In this document: piece by piece, positions 3,361 through 30,632 of the stretch
Numbering within the stretch: position 1 is the stretch's first letter
Layout of the letters: every line of letters starts with the position of its first letter
IMG/VR virus record: IMGVR_UViG_3300017971_000214
Span: 32,001 to 96,000 of that record
From: a virus
Length of the DNA: 64,000 nucleotides
Reading direction: 5' to 3' (one strand)
The notes under the pieces: model-generated
Databases searched by the model: none
What the model saw: only the letters and a program-made list of their open reading frames with translations
Told to the model about the DNA's origin: nothing
Program-made: the position numbers and the translations under genes

Positions 3361-3594
3361 ATGAGTGCAGAGATGAGACGAGGGCGGCTCGTGCAAGACC
3401 TTCAGGGATACGCAGAGTACGTAGCTGAAAAGATCAAAACGGCCTTCAACACGATGCCTATGGATCGAGCACTTCCGGCCACACGCACGGCGCGCGAAGA
3501 GCTGAGGCTGTTGGAGGAAGCTCGGGACACCGCGATGAAGCTCGACATCGACGACATGCCGGCAGTGGTGAAGGTGAAGCAGGTGAAGCCGTGA
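3361..3594 (+). CDS. hypothetical protein
   Basis: ORF directly after a promoter-like motif; coupled to the next gene. Confidence 0.6.
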   Translation: MSAEMRRGRLVQDLQGYAEYVAEKIKTAFNTMPMDRALPATRTAREELRLLEEARDTAMKLDIDDMPAVVKVKQVKP

Positions 3595-3815
3595 GTGGGG
3601 GCGATGATGGATACAACGCCGAGCCCCTGAACTTCGGCTGTGTCATCTGTCACGCTGCGAGCGCGAAGCACGAGAGTCCTGGGGACGAAACCAAGGTCAT
3701 CCTGCTCATGTTGCTGAAGGGTGATTCCTCGGCGGCGGAGATGTACGAGGACTTGTGCTTCTTCCACCGTCGCATCATGAACGACTTGCTGGAGACGACA
3801 CCGGAGGCGGTATGA
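3591..3815 (+). CDS. hypothetical protein
   Basis: GTGA coupling; CxxC...CxxH. Confidence 0.6.
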   Translation: MSGGDDGYNAEPLNFGCVICHAASAKHESPGDETKVILLMLLKGDSSAAEMYEDLCFFHRRIMNDLLETTPEAV

Positions 3816-4228
3816 ACAGGCGAGAGTTGATCAAGTTGGGAGCCCTGGCTCCTCTGATGGCGTGGTTCGAGCGGGTGTTCGGGCGCTTCTTCCCCGAGCG
3901 CGCCCAAGAGAAAATGCGGGGCTTCCGCCTGTACTTGGACGGCGAAAGCGTGACCTTCCCTGATGCAGTGTCCTTCGAGCACGACCCCTCGGAGTCCTTC
4001 AGCATGGCCTTCTGGTTCAAGACTCAGGCGAAGGACGCGGAGGTGAAGACGCAGCGCAGGAAGAAGATCCCAGCGATGCGCGTGAAGATCTCCAGGCTGT
4101 TCAGCCGCTTGAAGCCTGACGGGCAGTGGCACCACTTCCAGTGTAGCTACGACGGCGGCTCAGACCGGTCCCCAGAGGTCATCGTCCACGAGCCCCCGCC
4201 CGGAGGCATCGAGTTCTGGAAGGGGTAG
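3812..4228 (+). CDS. hypothetical protein with twin-arginine-like N-terminus and LamG-like fragments
   Basis: MNRRELIKLGALAPL; SFSMAFWFK and DGQWHH resemble LamG/concanavalin strands. Confidence 0.55.
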   Translation: MNRRELIKLGALAPLMAWFERVFGRFFPERAQEKMRGFRLYLDGESVTFPDAVSFEHDPSESFSMAFWFKTQAKDAEVKTQRRKKIPAMRVKISRLFSRLKPDGQWHHFQCSYDGGSDRSPEVIVHEPPPGGIEFWKG

Positions 4229-4347: not shown

Positions 4348-4626
4348 ATGAGCGAAGCGGACAAGGGATTCAACAACGAGCGGCTGCTAGCGAAGGCCAA
4401 GGAACTGGCTGCGGCGGCCAACGCTGCTACGGGCTCCGACGACTTCAACGCCGGGATGCTGTCGGTGTACAGCTCGGTGGAGAACGACCACGGAGAGTTC
4501 GTGGTGATCTGGACGGCCAATCTGGGCAAGTTCTCCTCGAACGGCGGCGGCGAGACCATGGAGCGGGCACTGAAGGCGCTGGAGGACAAAATCGCCCGGT
4601 TCGCTTCCGCGCAAGCGGGCGGCTGA
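4348..4626 (+). CDS. hypothetical protein
   Basis: ATG after purine-rich SD downstream of the promoter. Confidence 0.7.
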   Translation: MSEADKGFNNERLLAKAKELAAAANAATGSDDFNAGMLSVYSSVENDHGEFVVIWTANLGKFSSNGGGETMERALKALEDKIARFASAQAGG

Positions 4627-14701: not shown

Positions 14702-15166
14702 ATGCCTCTACTCACCGAAGAACAGAAGCGGCTCATGGGGATCGAACCCCGCGACTTCGGCGGCATGCCTGCCATGTTCCAGCCCGGAGCCTTCCAAGAG
14801 ATGTCTGCCGAGGAGCTGGCAGAGGCCAAGAAGAAGGCCAAGAAGAAGAAGGCCAAGGGCCGGAAGAAGAGGACCGAGGGTCGCCGGTCGCTGACCCTGT
14901 TCCCCACCACGGAGGCCATGGTCAACGCTCTGGAGCGGGCCAACAAGCTCATCCAGCGGGTGAACGCCACGGTCAACCGCGAGCGCCAGGGGTCCTCGGG
15001 CACCGTCATGAATGAGAAGGCGCGCGCCGACATGTACCGGCTCGACCAAGAGCTAGCCACGGCCATGGACGCCGTGCGTTCGGCGAGCGACGCTCTGGAG
15101 TGCATCGAGCAGGCCAAGAAGATGGCTGCCCGCGAGGCGCGCCAAGCCCGCCGTCAGGGCCGCTAG
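14702..15166 (+). CDS. basic coiled-coil hypothetical protein
   Basis: Lys-rich stretch; strong codon bias; followed by a terminator. Confidence 0.75.
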   Translation: MPLLTEEQKRLMGIEPRDFGGMPAMFQPGAFQEMSAEELAEAKKKAKKKKAKGRKKRTEGRRSLTLFPTTEAMVNALERANKLIQRVNATVNRERQGSSGTVMNEKARADMYRLDQELATAMDAVRSASDALECIEQAKKMAAREARQARRQGR

Positions 15167-15188
15167 TTCCCCCCACACCTCCGGGAAG

Positions 15189-15217
15189 AAAGGTCGATCT
15201 TCGGGTCGGCCTTTTTT
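15189..15217 (+). terminator. rho-independent terminator
   Basis: AAAGGTCGATC-TTCG-GGTCGGCCTTT stem-loop ending in a T-run. Confidence 0.8.
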
Positions 15218-15226
15218 GATCTTCCT

Positions 15227-15256
15227 GTTGACAATCCTTTTCCTATGTGATATTGT
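15227..15256 (+). promoter_or_regulatory. strong sigma70 promoter (copy 2 of the shared motif)
   Basis: TTGACA-17bp-TATTGT; GTTGACAATC.....CCTATGTGATA shared with 4275. Confidence 0.75.
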
Positions 15257-15287
15257 TTTTACGTACCCTGGGAGAAGGACAGAGCAG

Positions 15288-18071
15288 ATGGGACGAAAAG
15301 CATGGGCGAATCGGCGGAGCGGAACCTGCGAGGCGTGCGGCACTTCGGTGGCGGCGCAGGCCGGCTGGGTGTACCGGGACGATGCGGGTTCCTGGAAGGT
15401 GTGCTGCAAGAGCGCGGTGTGCGGGACGCAGCTCGGCCTCGCTGGGGCGGCCCCCGAGGCGGCGGAGACGCGGGAGCTGACGGCGGACGGTCGCGTACTG
15501 ATGCCCTACGAGAAAGCAGCGCTCCCCTTGCTGCGGGCGATGCCGGGCGCGCGGTTCGACCGTGACGCCTCCCCGAAGTGTTGGCGCGTGTCACTGGATC
15601 CCGGTGACCGGGACCGGCTCTTGGAGCTAGCGGACGAGCTGAAGCTCGCCGTGGCCCCCGAGCTGCGCACCGTGTCGGAGGACATCGAAGCGTTGTCCAA
15701 GCAGCTCATCGCGGACGGCCTGTACCCCTTCCAGGTGAAGGGCGTGTGTTGGTTGCGGCAGCGACGCCGCGCGTTGCTCGGCGACTCGATGGGACTAGGA
15801 AAAACCATCCAAGTCTTGTTTGCCCTACCCCATCCAAAGGGGTACGGTAAGAATCATGCCGAGAGGAGTGTATCCGAGAACGTCAAATCAGCTCAGAGCC
15901 GCCAAGGAGAATCTAGCCAAGGGGCGGCAGCCGAATGCTCGGCGAAAAGCAAAAGCGACGATGCGGAAGACAGCTCAGACGCCGGAGTGGCGCGCAAAGG
16001 TAAGCGAGGCCACGCGTCGTGCGATGCAGCGTCCCGAAGTGCGAGAGAAGCATCTCAAAGGTCTGAAGGGGAATCCAGTAGGATTCAAGGGGGGAAACGG
16101 ACAGCCTCCAGTTCCGATAGTCGAGTTGGCGGCCATTTTTCTGGAGCCTCTGGGGTTCGTGAGGGAGCTACCAATACGGACGAAAGGCCACGGAACGGAG
16201 TTGCGAGCACCGACACACTACAAGGCAGATTTAGGCCAGCCGGAACTGAAGATCGTAGTGGAACTGGACGGTCCGAGTCATTGGAACAAGCGCCAGCAGG
16301 ACAAGGATCGGAAGAAGACCGAAATCCTGGAAGCACTGGGTTGGACGGTGATCCGCATCCAGCACGGGCGATCGTCATCTGCCCGGCGAGTCTCAAGCTG
16401 AACTGGCGCGACGAGTGCAAGCGGTGGCGTCCGGGCCTGAAGCCTGTCGTGCTCTCGGGTCGCGGCAGCTTCCGGCACCCCGAAGCTGGAGAGGTCATCA
16501 TCACGAACTACGACATCTTGCCGAAGCTACCCCGCTGCACCTGCAAGGCGCACGGTCAGCTGAAGTACGTATCGGGCACCTGGGAGTGGGTGTGCGAGAA
16601 GTGCTCCAAGAAGAGCAACGCCACGGTGACCATCAAGGCCGACCCCGTGCTCGACCTCTCGGGCAAGGGGATCGTCGTGGTCGCCGACGAGTCCACCGCG
16701 GTCAAGAACTTCAAGGCCATCCGGTCCAAGGTCTTCAAGGCGCTCGCCGTCACCGCCGACAAGGTGTGGCAGCTGTCGGGCACCCCGATGCTCAACCGCC
16801 CGTTTGACCTCTACGGGATGCTCCAGTCCGGAGACATGGCCTACGAGGTGTTCGGTGGCTGGAGGTCCTTCCTCCGCTGCTTCAACGGCTACAAGAACCG
16901 GTGGGGCGGCTACGAGTTCGGCGAGCCTCTTCCCGAGACCCCTGAGCGCCTGCGCCGTGTGATGCTGCGCCGGCTCAAGACCGAGGTGCTGACTGATCTC
17001 CCTGAGGTCACCTACCAGACCCTCACCGTCAACAGTCTCGACAAGGGCCTGAAGGCGGAGCTGGACGCCGCGTGGAGCGCCTGGAACGACGAGGCCGAAG
17101 CACTCGACGGGCTCGCCGATGGTGCCCCCGCAGACCTTCCTCCCTTCGAGCAGTTCTCGAAGCTGCGCGCGAAGCTCGCTGCCAGCCGCATCAACGCGAT
17201 GCTTGATCTGGTCGAGCAGTACGAGGACAACGAGCAGCCGCTCATCGTCTTCTCCGCGCATCGCGCCCCCATCGACACCTTGGCCAAGCGCGAGGGGTGG
17301 GCCGTCATCACCGGCGACACCAACGCTGAGGCCCGCAACGAGGCCGTCAAGCGCTTCCAGAGCGGCGAGCTGAAGGGCATCGGCCTGACCATCAAGGCCG
17401 GCGGCTACGGGCTCACGCTGACCCGCGGCAGCCACCTTCTGTTCGTCGACCTCGAATGGACCCCCTCCGCCAACGCGCAGGCAGAGGACCGGGCTCGTCG
17501 TATCGGGCAGACCGCCGACTCGATTCAGGTCACCCGCATGGTCTCCGACCACCCGCTCGACCAGCACGTCCTACGGCTTCTCGCTGAGAAGACCGCCATG
17601 ATCTTCAAGGCTGTCGAAGCCGAGGTGCAGTACAAGCGGGCGCCCAAGCCCAAAACCGCCCAGCCCAGCGGTTGGGTGCAGGAGAGCGACGCGGACCAGC
17701 AGGCGCGCAAGGATGCCATCGAGCAGGCCGCCAAGGAGGCCGAGAAGGCTCAGGCGCAGAAGCGCATCGACAAGATCATCCTCCAGGAAAAGGACCGTCA
17801 GGGCACCGCTCCGGGCGAGACCTTGGAGCTGACCTCCGAAGTCCGCCAGGCTCTCACCGATGCCTTCTACTTCATGAAGAGCGTCTGCGATGGCGCGCAG
17901 GAGAAGGACGGCCAAGGGTTCTCCAAGCCCGACGTCTACCGCACCGCGTTCCTCGCATCGTGGATGGACACCGGAGAGGAGACCGCGTTCCGCGCGGCGG
18001 CCATGATCCTCTGCCGCTACAGGCGGCAGCTCGGCAAGCAGTTCCCCATCCTTTTCAAGAAGGCGGCTTGA
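15288..18071 (+). CDS. SNF2/SWI2-family (HARP-like) helicase with a 175-codon in-frame insertion
   Basis: GDSMGLGKT, CPASLKLNW, VADES, LSGTP, GYGLTL and QAEDRARRIGQ motifs; low-complexity insert between motifs I and Ia. Confidence 0.9.
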   Translation: MGRKAWANRRSGTCEACGTSVAAQAGWVYRDDAGSWKVCCKSAVCGTQLGLAGAAPEAAETRELTADGRVLMPYEKAALPLLRAMPGARFDRDASPKCWRVSLDPGDRDRLLELADELKLAVAPELRTVSEDIEALSKQLIADGLYPFQVKGVCWLRQRRRALLGDSMGLGKTIQVLFALPHPKGYGKNHAERSVSENVKSAQSRQGESSQGAAAECSAKSKSDDAEDSSDAGVARKGKRGHASCDAASRSAREASQRSEGESSRIQGGKRTASSSDSRVGGHFSGASGVREGATNTDERPRNGVASTDTLQGRFRPAGTEDRSGTGRSESLEQAPAGQGSEEDRNPGSTGLDGDPHPARAIVICPASLKLNWRDECKRWRPGLKPVVLSGRGSFRHPEAGEVIITNYDILPKLPRCTCKAHGQLKYVSGTWEWVCEKCSKKSNATVTIKADPVLDLSGKGIVVVADESTAVKNFKAIRSKVFKALAVTADKVWQLSGTPMLNRPFDLYGMLQSGDMAYEVFGGWRSFLRCFNGYKNRWGGYEFGEPLPETPERLRRVMLRRLKTEVLTDLPEVTYQTLTVNSLDKGLKAELDAAWSAWNDEAEALDGLADGAPADLPPFEQFSKLRAKLAASRINAMLDLVEQYEDNEQPLIVFSAHRAPIDTLAKREGWAVITGDTNAEARNEAVKRFQSGELKGIGLTIKAGGYGLTLTRGSHLLFVDLEWTPSANAQAEDRARRIGQTADSIQVTRMVSDHPLDQHVLRLLAEKTAMIFKAVEAEVQYKRAPKPKTAQPSGWVQESDADQQARKDAIEQAAKEAEKAQAQKRIDKIILQEKDRQGTAPGETLELTSEVRQALTDAFYFMKSVCDGAQEKDGQGFSKPDVYRTAFLASWMDTGEETAFRAAAMILCRYRRQLGKQFPILFKKAA
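15820..15848 (+). promoter_or_regulatory. internal promoter for the nested endonuclease
   Basis: TTGCCC-17bp-TACGGT, 7 nt to ATG 15856; same geometry as other leaderless promoters in the window. Confidence 0.6.
15856..16401 (+). CDS. nested +1-frame Vsr/DUF559-like endonuclease with NUMOD3-like basic helices
   Basis: YKADLG..LKIVVELDGPSH...DRKKTEILEALGWTVIRI; PEWRAKVSEA/PEVREKH helices. Confidence 0.85.
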   Translation: MPRGVYPRTSNQLRAAKENLAKGRQPNARRKAKATMRKTAQTPEWRAKVSEATRRAMQRPEVREKHLKGLKGNPVGFKGGNGQPPVPIVELAAIFLEPLGFVRELPIRTKGHGTELRAPTHYKADLGQPELKIVVELDGPSHWNKRQQDKDRKKTEILEALGWTVIRIQHGRSSSARRVSS

Positions 18072-18072
18072 G

Positions 18073-18588
18073 ATGTCGAAGGGAAAGAAGCGCAGGAAGG
18101 GCGAGCCCACAGGAAAGCAGCGCCGACGAGAGAAGGCCCGGCTCCGATTCGTGCGGACGGTTCAGGACTTCTGGTCTGACTTCGAGGAGTGCCCTCTGTC
18201 CGAGGACTACATCAAGGCGAACCCCAAGGCCGTGGAACAAGGAGACCGCATGTTCTGGAACAGTCGCTACCACGTGTGGCTGCGCGACTTCCACTCCGAG
18301 GCGTTCGACACGACCATAACGCACCTGTCGATCAAACGGAACGACAAGGAGCCGTTGCACGACTGGAGAGATCTGCAGAGGATCAAGAACGAGCTGTGCG
18401 GCGAAGAACGAGAGGCCATCGAGCTGTACCCTGCGGAGTCGCGGACTGTCGATTTGGCAAATCAGTATCACCTCTGGGTGTTCCCGGAAGGGGTGAGGGT
18501 GCCCCTAGGATTCTTCGAGGGGCAGATGAAGGGCACACCGAAAGAAGCGGAAGAGATAGGCGCGAAGCAACGTAGGTTCGAGAGCTGA
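18073..18588 (+). CDS. conserved phage hypothetical protein
   Basis: HLSIKR..DWRDLQRIKNE..G.E.EAIE.YP..LANQYHLW motif. Confidence 0.8.
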   Translation: MSKGKKRRKGEPTGKQRRREKARLRFVRTVQDFWSDFEECPLSEDYIKANPKAVEQGDRMFWNSRYHVWLRDFHSEAFDTTITHLSIKRNDKEPLHDWRDLQRIKNELCGEEREAIELYPAESRTVDLANQYHLWVFPEGVRVPLGFFEGQMKGTPKEAEEIGAKQRRFES

Positions 18589-28544: not shown

Positions 28545-30632
28545 ATGACAGAGCTGAGCATCCAGCGCATGGGCTCGGGTGAGTTCGAGCCCAAAGCCGG
28601 CCTGATCTACAAAGACGTATTCGACCTGATGAGCCTGTACGAAGGGCTCGCGTTCCGGGCGCCGACCATCGTGGTTGGCCCGAAAGGCATCGGCAAGACC
28701 CTGAGCATCCAGGCGTTCGCGGCGCAGCAGGACTGTCCCATCGTGACGTTCGACTGCTCGGAGGATGTTCGTCGCCAGCACTTGATCGGCATCTTCGTTC
28801 TGCGTGGGCAGGAGACTCCGTTCGTCCTGGGGCCGCTGACGACGGCGTTCGAGGTCGCCAACGAGGTGGGGCAGTGCATCCTGTGTTTGGAGGAGATCAA
28901 CTGTCTCTACCCCACCACTACCGTCTTGGTCCCCTCTGGCGAAGAAGTTCCGATCGAGCGGCTGCGGTTGGGAGATCCTGTTGTTGGATTCGATCCTGCG
29001 GGCGGTCAGTGTTTAGCGCATGTGGTAGAAACCCGGTATCAACGCGCTGACTCCTCATATACAATAGAAGCCGGTGAGGAAATCATCAAAGCCAGCGAAA
29101 ACCACCTCTTTTGGACAAGGAGGGGGTGGGTCCCCGCGAAGTTCCTCCAAGAAGGGGACGAAGTCCTTCGTGTGTGCGAAGTGTGGTTGCCGCAAAAAGG
29201 ACCTGAGGTCTCTTCGGGCGCACGAACGGATGGCTCACGGGAAGAATCCGATGAAGAATCCGGAATGCGTCGTGAAGGTTCACACGGCGGCTCGGAACGA
29301 GAAGATTTCAAAAGCCGCAACAGCGCGGTGGAAGGACCCGGAGTACCGGGAGACGATGAGCGAGTTTCTACGGGAGTTGCGTCCCATGGACAACCCCAAG
29401 GTGAGATCAAAGATGTCCGAAACCCAGAGGCTTCGGATGCTTTCGGAATGGAGGGATCCGAAAAAGAGAGAACGTCGCTTGGAGAGTTGTCGGACGCCGG
29501 AGTTCCGAGAGACTGCGGCGAAAGGGGGAAAGAAGACCGCTGCGTTCTGGAGGTCCCCAGAAGGAAGAAAGATAGCTTCGATGCGCTCCAAGAAGCTCTG
29601 GGCGGACGAGAGACACCGGAAGCTCATGTCCGAAAAGCGAAAACAGCATCTACTGGATCATCCAGACAAGAAGATACAGTTCGTACATGCGGGATGGAAC
29701 GCTCAACGCCCAACGAAGTTGGAACGTCGGGCCATAGAGATTCTAGTCGACCTTCCAGTCTTCTACACAGGGGACGGAACGAGATGGATCACTACACCCA
29801 AAGGGCGACATTTGAATCCGGACTTTTCGGTGGAAGGCAAGAAAGTGATTCTTGTGGATGGGGACTACTGGCACCCACCGAATCAGAAGAGGTCAGAGAC
29901 TTTGGCCTACAAGAGCGCGGGATTCTCAGTTCTTCGCTTGTCGGAAGACCAAGTGAAGAACCATCCAGCACTTGTGCTAAAGCGGGTCCAGAAATTCCTC
30001 TCTGGGTAACCGTTCGAAGAGTCACCCGAAATCTTGAGGCTACTCCTCTGTGCGAAATCGGCCTTACTGGTCCTCACACTTACTTTGCTTCGGGGCTCGG
30101 AACGCACAACTCACTGACACCCCAGATGCAGAAGGTGCTCAACGCCCCAACCGACTGGCGGCAACGCATCGAGGTGCCGGAAGCTCGGAAGGTGTTCCGG
30201 TTGGAGAAGGGCAAGAAGATTTGGGTAACGGGGACGATGAACACTGCGGTATACGGCGGCGTGTACCAGCTCAACGAAGACCTGAAGAGTCGCATGAGGC
30301 TCGTTGCGCTTACCTACCCGAAGTCCTCCAAGGAGAAGGAGATCATCGCCGCGGTCCTCTCCGACACGTCTCTGGATCAGTCGGTAGTCGACCGGGTGAT
30401 TCTCCTTGCGCACGAGACTCGACAGCAGTCGTTGGAGTACGCGCTCAGTACACGCGACGTCGTGCAGTTGCTGGAGGACATCGCGGCTATGGATTTGACC
30501 AGGGCGCTGCGCATCGTACTCGGCAAGTTCGACGACACCGACCGGGACACGGTGGCAGAGAGAATCCAAAGCATCTTCGGCGTGAGCTTCGATCAGACCT
30601 CGCGGCGTCGCGGGGCTGCAGCGAGGGCGTGA
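28545..30632 (+). CDS. MoxR/CbbQ-type AAA+ ATPase containing an intein
   Basis: Walker A GPKGIGKT, Walker B ILCLEEIN, TMN..Y.G...LNEDLKSR, STR. Confidence 0.88.
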   Translation: MTELSIQRMGSGEFEPKAGLIYKDVFDLMSLYEGLAFRAPTIVVGPKGIGKTLSIQAFAAQQDCPIVTFDCSEDVRRQHLIGIFVLRGQETPFVLGPLTTAFEVANEVGQCILCLEEINCLYPTTTVLVPSGEEVPIERLRLGDPVVGFDPAGGQCLAHVVETRYQRADSSYTIEAGEEIIKASENHLFWTRRGWVPAKFLQEGDEVLRVCEVWLPQKGPEVSSGARTDGSREESDEESGMRREGSHGGSEREDFKSRNSAVEGPGVPGDDERVSTGVASHGQPQGEIKDVRNPEASDAFGMEGSEKERTSLGELSDAGVPRDCGERGKEDRCVLEVPRRKKDSFDALQEALGGRETPEAHVRKAKTASTGSSRQEDTVRTCGMERSTPNEVGTSGHRDSSRPSSLLHRGRNEMDHYTQRATFESGLFGGRQESDSCGWGLLAPTESEEVRDFGLQERGILSSSLVGRPSEEPSSTCAKAGPEIPLWVTVRRVTRNLEATPLCEIGLTGPHTYFASGLGTHNSLTPQMQKVLNAPTDWRQRIEVPEARKVFRLEKGKKIWVTGTMNTAVYGGVYQLNEDLKSRMRLVALTYPKSSKEKEIIAAVLSDTSLDQSVVDRVILLAHETRQQSLEYALSTRDVVQLLEDIAAMDLTRALRIVLGKFDDTDRDTVAERIQSIFGVSFDQTSRRRGAAARA
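28902..30110 (+). mobile_element. intein (403 aa) whose endonuclease is encoded out of frame
   Basis: CLYPTT.V block A, ASENHLFW block B, HTYFASGLGTHN end with +1 Ser; middle ~280 aa is low-complexity in the intein frame. Confidence 0.85.
29074..30009 (+). CDS. nested +1-frame endonuclease: C2H2 finger + NUMOD3-like helices + Vsr/DUF559-like domain (start uncertain, 29074 or 29170)
   Basis: CAKC..H....H; WKDPEYRE-type repeats; PTKLE..NPDF..KKVILVDGDYWH..YKSAGFSVLRL. Confidence 0.85.
   Translation: MRKSSKPAKTTSFGQGGGGSPRSSSKKGTKSFVCAKCGCRKKDLRSLRAHERMAHGKNPMKNPECVVKVHTAARNEKISKAATARWKDPEYRETMSEFLRELRPMDNPKVRSKMSETQRLRMLSEWRDPKKRERRLESCRTPEFRETAAKGGKKTAAFWRSPEGRKIASMRSKKLWADERHRKLMSEKRKQHLLDHPDKKIQFVHAGWNAQRPTKLERRAIEILVDLPVFYTGDGTRWITTPKGRHLNPDFSVEGKKVILVDGDYWHPPNQKRSETLAYKSAGFSVLRLSEDQVKNHPALVLKRVQKFLSG

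Follow-up and report, generated by a model that had tools for sequence, protein, structure and literature searches.

An endonuclease gene of probable homing type lies in the +1 frame of an intein-less, in-frame insert in a viral SNF2 helicase gene

In the virus record IMGVR_UViG_3300017971_000214 we studied a SNF2-family helicase gene that carries, between its motifs I and Ia, an in-frame insert with a second gene, for an endonuclease, in the +1 frame. The stretch analysed, hereafter the window, comprises 64,000 nucleotides (nt) of a record of 126,260 nt that is estimated to be 68% complete. The insert is likely a dual-coding homing cassette that does without intron or intein, the helicase being translated through it as a disordered loop of 175 residues and the endonuclease being made separately. 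A preliminary description of this DNA had proposed an element of the homing type which leaves the host frame open and thereby spares the gene it sits in. This proposal is supported by what we observed: the host frame of the dual-coding insert is depleted of stop codons, the arrangement recurs in three other lineages, selection acts on the endonuclease frame, and near-identical phages lack the insert.

According to the list of open reading frames (ORFs), the helicase frame runs uninterrupted across the insert for 951 codons (15216-18071). Congruently with the preliminary description, the helicase-frame reading of the insert is a low-complexity peptide of ~175 codons, rich in Ser, Gly, Glu and Arg, without a single stop, and it matched no Pfam family at E ≤ 1. 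We derived the number of stops to be expected from 5000 synonymous-codon shuffles of the endonuclease ORF, and also from shuffles of its codon order. While 5.87 stops were expected from the synonymous shuffles and 6.22 from the codon-order shuffles, the host frame has none; only 1 of the 5000 synonymous shuffles was open (P 0.0002). The depletion is specific to the host frame, because the remaining third frame of the cassette contains 10 stops against 8.15 expected. As a control we took 49 stretches of 181 codons each from 19 further long open frames in the window; at that offset every one of the 49 contained stops, the mean being 3.86. The open helicase frame through the insert is not due to chance.

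The comparison of dN/dS (the ratio of nonsynonymous to synonymous divergence) and of stop depletion in both frames, proposed earlier as a check on the element, separated the two frames. We compared the window with L085, a related locus in which the endonuclease lies in the +1 frame of another SNF2 helicase gene. The differences fall 54/48/101 on the three codon positions of the endonuclease, and in this frame the proportion of differing sites is 0.765 for synonymous (pS) and 0.285 for nonsynonymous (pN) positions. The host-frame peptides, on the other hand, are 28% identical, with a dN/dS of ~1.7 and still no stop. Of the two frames, only that of the endonuclease shows purifying selection; the host-frame peptide varies freely provided that no stop arises. 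Synonymous sites are saturated at this distance, and therefore the open host frame must be actively maintained.

The same arrangement was found in further loci. In an unrooted tree whose bootstrap had not settled, the endonucleases of the window, L085 and L086 formed a group on a long branch with 100/100 support. A clade-specific scan added the loci L168/L169/L171 and L172/L173, together with 14 partial matches (L174-L187) that cover the N-terminal helices only, and a scan of genome contigs with the clade alignment gave a single incomplete match, which covers residues 1-71 and lies in a metagenome-assembled genome. The members L085, L168/L169/L171 and L172/L173 are 45-60% identical and lie in the +1 frame of SNF2 helicase ORFs. 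In L085 the endonuclease is located between the Q motif and motif I, with no host-frame stop where 4.7 were expected. In the L168 and L172 types it lies upstream of the Q motif, within intact SNF2 ORFs of 894 and 903 codons, respectively, which match SNF2-rel_dom and Helicase_C but no intein family in Pfam; here there are 0 stops against 7.1 and 9.1 expected. The insertion sites thus differ between lineages, those of L085 and of the L168/L172 types being two sites near motif I other than that of the window. Judged by the sequences, the position of every clade insertion near the motif I codons suggests that the target lies there. The L086 endonuclease is free-standing and ends at the start codon of a SNF2 helicase gene, upstream of which it lies; its 0 stops at the host offset, against 2.3 expected, are not significant at its G+C of 0.71 (P 0.061).

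Two of these loci deserve a separate word. In L169 the endonuclease copy (3501-4037) has an in-frame stop and the 894-codon helicase frame above it is still open; a decaying homing gene in a host gene that is still needed would look like this. In L086 (3228-4534) the ORF upstream of the free-standing endonuclease has, by eye, an HNH-like Cys/His motif, and the two may be endonuclease genes in tandem.

Relatives without the insert bear out another expectation of the preliminary description, namely that there should be empty alleles exactly 525 nt shorter. A protein search with the part of the helicase that follows the insert returned 977 homologues. The five closest (P0005-P0009; 90, 77, 76, 67 and 65% identical) have 750-800 residues, against 927 in the database protein P0004, and show AL-PE(N/S/K)-(G/A)R in the place of 178 residues of the window, so that the net gain is 175 codons; in the alignment, ...QVLKAL-PEN-GRVVVICPASL... 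of the homologues stands against ...QVLFAL-PHP[...]PHP-ARAIVICPASL of the window. At the DNA level we compared alleles in contigs of four public runs (X1-X4), of which X3 and X4 are wetland metagenomes from two studies. X1 and X2 contain the whole stretch and may be the runs from which it derives; no RNA run was listed among those that contain it. A diverged 2383-nt contig of X1 has 287 nt between the anchors 15529-15589 and 16401-16517, where the window has 812, which is exactly 525 nt fewer. In X3 and X4 the flanks are covered at 98.9-100% identity, with zero depth across 15803-16338. One X3 contig shows 0 differences in 211 nt (15575-15785), beyond which it departs from the window inside the motif I codons; the X3 and X4 contigs that join at 16372 are preceded by letters encoding K-A-L-P-E-N-G-R-V, that is, the empty junction. 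Searches for relatives of the helicase elsewhere reached farther afield: tblastn against GenBank phages gave 227 records, none of which reached 60% identity or covered as much as 80% of the query; a scan of viral contigs using the helicase's C-terminal part gave no relative; and a metagenome scan gave 80 loci, the best 45% identical, with the close relatives not among them.

The differences from the insert-free phages are concentrated beside the insert, with 8/99 nt at 16372-16470 followed by 2/176, 2/157 and 0/95 farther out. Between 16481 and 17200 the X4 contig differs from the window at 8 of 720 nt, and 7 of these 8 differences fall on third positions of helicase codons. A nearly identical phage without the insert and a divergence piled up next to it are the pattern expected of co-conversion during homing or of selection for a cleavage-resistant site, and the sequences would fit either. 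The G+C content is ~0.57 in the insert versus ~0.64-0.68 in both flanks. Relative to the insert-free lineage, the changes cluster at 15786-15827 and 16362-16470: besides Asp to Ser and several synonymous base differences in the motif I codons, they comprise Val to Ile, Lys to Phe, PEN to PHP, Gly to Ala and ValVal to AlaIle. This cluster may render the site resistant to the endonuclease.

Most of the relatives of the endonuclease that were examined lie in ORFs with intein signatures. A tblastn search of GenBank phages with the endonuclease returned 40 records, and we inspected three of them (Pseudomonas phage MR14, L001; Corynebacterium phage phi673, L002; Vibrio phage K391, L003). In each the match lies in the +1 frame of an annotated helicase coding sequence that runs through, and what surrounds the match in the host frame is an intein of the classic kind, placed at helicase motif II; the annotation shows the long helicase coding sequence alone, with no feature for the intein or for the +1 endonuclease gene. 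In IMG/VR, a profile of five endonucleases found 302 relatives, and the figures that follow come from the best 80. At the host offset the match is free of stops in every one of the 80, and 78 lie inside host ORFs of 489-1645 codons that remain open for at least 150 nt past either end; at the other offset no locus is open. Since 10 of the 78 nested loci are near-duplicates, we counted stops in the 68 non-duplicate loci and found 0 in the host frame, where 321 were expected from shuffles. A crude intein motif, xxHN[C/S/T], occurs within 150 residues after the endonuclease in 74 of the 78 nested loci, and the seven host ORFs scanned with Pfam (L087, L093, L118, L124, L120, L143 and L149) all match intein or Hint families; for Intein_splicing taken by itself, L143 and L149 score 27.3 and 35.1 bits, under the curated cut-off of 35.8 bits.

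Among these host ORFs, the RecQ-like helicase ORF of L124 (1948-6882, 1645 codons) matches Hom_end_hint, Hom_end, LAGLIDADG_3, Hint and Intein_splicing, which suggests that this one gene may hold several inteins, one of them with a +1 Vsr-like endonuclease. The window contains a second case of its own: an AAA+ ATPase ORF with an unsplit intein (28545-30632) carries in its +1 frame a DUF559/Vsr-like ORF of 311 amino acids (29074-30009), with 0 host-frame stops against 11.7 expected. A profile of 49 relatives of the first endonuclease, run against its own genome, did not find this second one.

The intein-nested relatives open the way to a different reading, in which the helicase is dead or dispensable and its frame stays open by inheritance from ancestors that needed the openness. 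That 78 of the best 80 relatives lie within intein-signature ORFs, where an open frame is obligatory, that the L085 helicase is broken downstream of the cassette, and that even the free-standing L086 has 0 host-offset stops, although not significantly so, would all agree with it. The saturation of synonymous sites tells against it, as every nested clade member is still open, and the helicases of L168 and L172 are full length. The window gene itself matches SNF2-rel_dom (5.6e-26) and Helicase_C (8.5e-12), has all its helicase motifs intact and differs from near-identical relatives mostly at third positions. In the 126-kb record, 68% complete, no other SNF2 gene was found. We regard a dead or dispensable helicase as rather unlikely.

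The borders of the cassette bear on whether the insert could instead be removed. On the left, similarity to L085, L168 and L172 starts at ~CTA/CCCAT (15825-15833) and takes in the hairpin that had been predicted at this junction. The hairpin does fold (-20.1 kcal/mol for the 66-nt stretch, z -1.95) and has homologues ahead of the endonuclease start codon in those three loci; in L085 its 3' arm covers a GGGAGG Shine-Dalgarno sequence. On the right, the homology of the window, L085 and L086 reaches the His codon at 16362-16364 and then ends, and L085 has its stop codon there. The flanking 9-mer repeat described earlier is present, its copies 8/9 identical and spaced 525 nt. We considered it as a duplicated host target and rejected this, because both copies lie in cassette-derived sequence; moreover, the L085 cassette ends without the repeat. 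Given its exact spacing, the insert might on rare occasions be lost in frame.

In another reading the insert does not reach the protein: an unrecognised ribozyme takes it out, ribosomes bypass it from one set of Pro-His-Pro codons to the other, or the DNA is excised between the 9-mers. Such removal would make use of a direct repeat placed exactly one insert length apart and of the hairpin at the left junction. It also has a model in T4 gene 60/mobA, where an endonuclease cassette without intron or intein brings its own solution for host expression in the form of a bypass signal, with a 50-nt bypass and gene splitting (bioRxiv 10.1101/2022.08.31.505936, as far as its accessible text goes). Measured by the features of that bypass, the window has matched codons and a hairpin, but the putative take-off codon, for Pro, is followed by AAG and not by a stop, and at 525 nt the gap would be ten times as long as the known one. 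An Rfam scan of 15500-16800 at E ≤ 10 for group I or II introns gave an unrelated small RNA only (E 9.4), Rfam holding described families, and the endonuclease ORF fills 506 of the ~534 nt of the cassette, in line with the earlier statement that it leaves no room for an intron core. Above all, skipping the insert would leave nothing selecting for an open host frame, and yet this frame is depleted of stops in all four intein-less lineages. Among the ways of coping that had been offered for the host, the tolerated loop is therefore favoured, and bypass and RNA or DNA excision are disfavoured; we consider removal very unlikely.

Equally little probability falls to a domesticated nuclease that works with the helicase as a helicase-nuclease pair and is not selfish. 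The clade is always found in or beside SNF2 helicase genes, as such a partnership would have it. But the endonuclease is present or absent among near-identical phages, its insertion sites shift between lineages, and the L169 copy has acquired a stop under an open host frame; these are the marks of the life cycle of a selfish element. Least probable of all is a cryptic or new protein-splicing element with a self-excising host-frame peptide: nearly all relatives of the endonuclease lie within inteins, including the one at 28545-30632 of the window, but the helicase matched no intein or Hint family at E ≤ 1, whichever register of the repeat is taken, the insert is not followed by Cys, Ser or Thr (the junction residues are Pro/His/Pro/Ala), no His-Asn precedes the junction, the host-frame peptide is unconserved relative to that of L085 and predicted to be disordered, and the endonuclease ORF leaves no space for splicing blocks, all in line with the lack of intein motifs reported at the outset.

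The protein encoded in the +1 frame had been described as a NUMOD3-like plus Vsr/DUF559-like endonuclease, and the second half of this description stands. The 181-residue ORF matches DUF559 (PF04480) at 2.5e-9; in Pfam it matched neither an HNH family nor, at E ≤ 1, a NUMOD family. Lacking a stop of its own, the ORF continues for 37 nt into helicase codons, from which it takes 11 codons before the TGA at 16399-16401. An AlphaFold2 model built on a 49-sequence alignment (mean pLDDT, the predicted score in the local distance difference test, 83.2) shows four helices (residues 10-72) followed by an alpha/beta domain (residues 87-168). Foldseek with this model gave no match at E ≤ 0.001; structures from its list were superposed on residues 80-176 with VIA-align, which gave a Z of 7.8 for 3hrl, a DUF559 structure (root-mean-square deviation, rmsd, 2.1; 69 aligned), 7.4 for 3r3p, the catalytic domain of I-Bth0305I (rmsd 2.9; 75 aligned), and 7.2 for 1cw0, Vsr (rmsd 3.2; 84 aligned). 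Mitoribosomal proteins with RAP domains gave a Z of 8.9-10.0 for the alpha/beta domain. In a search of the PDB the single sequence found only 3hrl (E 0.92), and the profile of the 49-member family found it at 8.3e-7. Residues E136, D138, H142 and D151 are invariant among the 49 family sequences and are candidates for the composite E-D-x-H-D catalytic residues of the EDxHD/Vsr-like homing endonucleases, whose prototype is I-Bth0305I; the sequence match to 3r3p is weak (E 0.15-0.17).

We infer the following course of events. A homing cassette of the free-standing type, made up of a 5' hairpin and an ORF that joins putative DNA-binding repeats of helical type to a nuclease of the Vsr/DUF559 fold, would have recombined into the SNF2 helicase gene, and its arrival would have brought or reshaped the adjacent helicase codons. 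Ribosomes would read through the insert and produce a helicase with a disordered 175-residue loop in its first RecA-like lobe, which the enzyme presumably tolerates. The endonuclease would be translated separately from the internal ATG at 15856, where the upstream hairpin probably restrains initiation. The probable targets of the endonuclease are helicase alleles without the insert, cut near the motif I codons, and this would be how the cassette spreads.

Several points weigh against this account. In L085 (4558-4592) the helicase frame is open through the cassette and is then broken by an 8-nt insertion within the P-loop codons (GDEMG|LGKT), with a stop at 4573-4575; the helicase may be dead, or the insertion may be a scar of repair where the endonuclease cut or an error of assembly. 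The insert of the window lies inside the ATPase core, a position less obviously permissive than the site of L168 and L172 upstream of the core. The AlphaFold2 model of the helicase (mean pLDDT 81.5, mostly above 90 elsewhere) has a single segment with pLDDT below 50, residues 206-351 of P0004, within the insert; such a segment is compatible with a disordered loop but is no evidence that the loop is tolerated. Around the endonuclease start there is a weak Shine-Dalgarno-like sequence only. The leaderless promoter that had been read there (TTGCCC-17-TACGGT) was not recovered: a consensus promoter scan found no promoter for the endonuclease, its sole site being 15228-15256, upstream of the helicase, and no terminator-like site was found in 15000-18300. 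The likeness to I-Bth0305I is one of fold. The X3 and X4 evidence comes from contigs and not from raw reads, and the empty site is spanned by none of these contigs.

Coordinates of the helicase gene, the inserted cassette and their parts in the window
Feature	Position	Strand	Remarks
SNF2-family helicase gene	15288..18071	+	likely start ATG 15288, matching P0004 and homologues; host of the insert
Helicase motif I codons, GDSMGLGKT	15780..15806	+	22 nt upstream of the insert
Hairpin	15820..15850	+	5+6 pairs; ends 5 nt before the endonuclease start codon
Inserted cassette	15828..16361	+	net gain of 525 nt (175 codons) against empty alleles; each boundary uncertain by ~9 nt
9-mer direct repeat, 5' copy, CCCCATCCA	15828..15836	+	within stem and loop of the cassette hairpin
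Endonuclease gene	15856..16401	+	+1 frame, 181 amino acids; four N-terminal helices and a Vsr/DUF559-fold domain (residues 80-176)
9-mer direct repeat, 3' copy, CCGCATCCA	16353..16361	+	among the conserved codons of the endonuclease C terminus (…VIRIQ…)
Right flank of the helicase including motif Ia	16362..16470	+	more diverged from near-identical insert-free phages than farther flanks
Helicase motif Ia, VICPASLKLNW	16374..16406	+	within the right flank of the insert

As far as the accessible text of the published work goes, the arrangement has a precedent. An in-frame insert without intein or intron that hides an out-of-frame endonuclease was published in 2025 as the ShiLan domain, with an HNH endonuclease, together with a second insert in Pacc40 gp60 (PMC11855218). 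The 'stealth' endonuclease of the preliminary description is thus a real arrangement whose novelty was overstated. Both have a host frame without stops, a complete endonuclease ORF on the same strand in another frame, no intein or intron signals, presence or absence among relatives, and a host-frame peptide predicted to be an unstructured loop. While the ShiLan nuclease is of the HNH type, that of the window has the Vsr/DUF559 fold, HNH belonging to the examples so far described and not to the concept as such. The ShiLan endonuclease is said to occupy the 'third frame', where ours is in +1, and its host is a methylase described as non-essential, where ours is the ATPase core of a SNF2 protein. 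An endonuclease ORF without its own stop, statistical evidence for selection on the open frame and clade relatives nested in inteins are found on the window side only.

Within the same limits, non-canonical inteins (Gosselin, Arsenault & Gogarten, bioRxiv 10.1101/2025.01.02.630785) also have an endonuclease overprinted on a host-frame linker that is kept open; there the Hint blocks remove the linker, whereas the window element has no Hint blocks, and the Vsr-like endonucleases of this actinophage preprint are antisense and not in the same-strand +1 frame. A 2026 preprint on a cyanobacterial dnaX intein (10.64898/2026.09.14.751524) is reported to present the same idea, an endonuclease in a separate frame. 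Fractured genes and I-Bth0305I (PMC2677866; PMC3239194) have in common with the window a Vsr-like fold, N-terminal helical repeats (in the window putative), phage DNA-metabolism targets and a 5' leader hairpin. In fractured genes the host frame is closed by a stop, a 27-51-nt spacer and a restart, and split inteins rejoin the halves (Dassa et al., 2009), while the helicase frame of the window is continuous; I-Bth0305I sits in a group I intron (Taylor et al., 2011), and its similarity to the window endonuclease in sequence is marginal. In the literature covered, supplementary files that may list further out-of-frame elements aside, this nuclease family did not turn up in any in-frame insert lacking an intein.

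The usual view is that a homing endonuclease has to reside in an intron, in an intein or between genes if its host gene is to be spared. In 2025 a single HNH/methylase case led to the proposal of a third option, in which ribosomes simply read through the insert, giving a harmless loop, and the insert hides its own gene in another frame. To this our results add a different nuclease family, a core replication/repair enzyme as host and statistical evidence that the open frame is selected, with four independent intein-less lineages tied to at least 302 viral loci of the same +1 dual coding; of the best 80, which were examined, 78 lie in ORFs with intein signatures. Such endonuclease genes are systematically missed because gene callers annotate the long helicase ORF only, as in the three GenBank phages. 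We tentatively suggest, as a possibility somewhat short of even, that the clade's own -1 frame serves as a built-in, stop-free, disordered linker: the same dual coding that bridges the splicing halves in the intein relatives could have let these genes drop directly into SNF2 genes with no need of an intron or intein, in the window even into the ATPase core, in a mode continuous with the intein-nested form. If this is true, read-through of a dual-coded linker would be a third general route by which homing endonucleases colonise important genes, beside RNA splicing and protein splicing.

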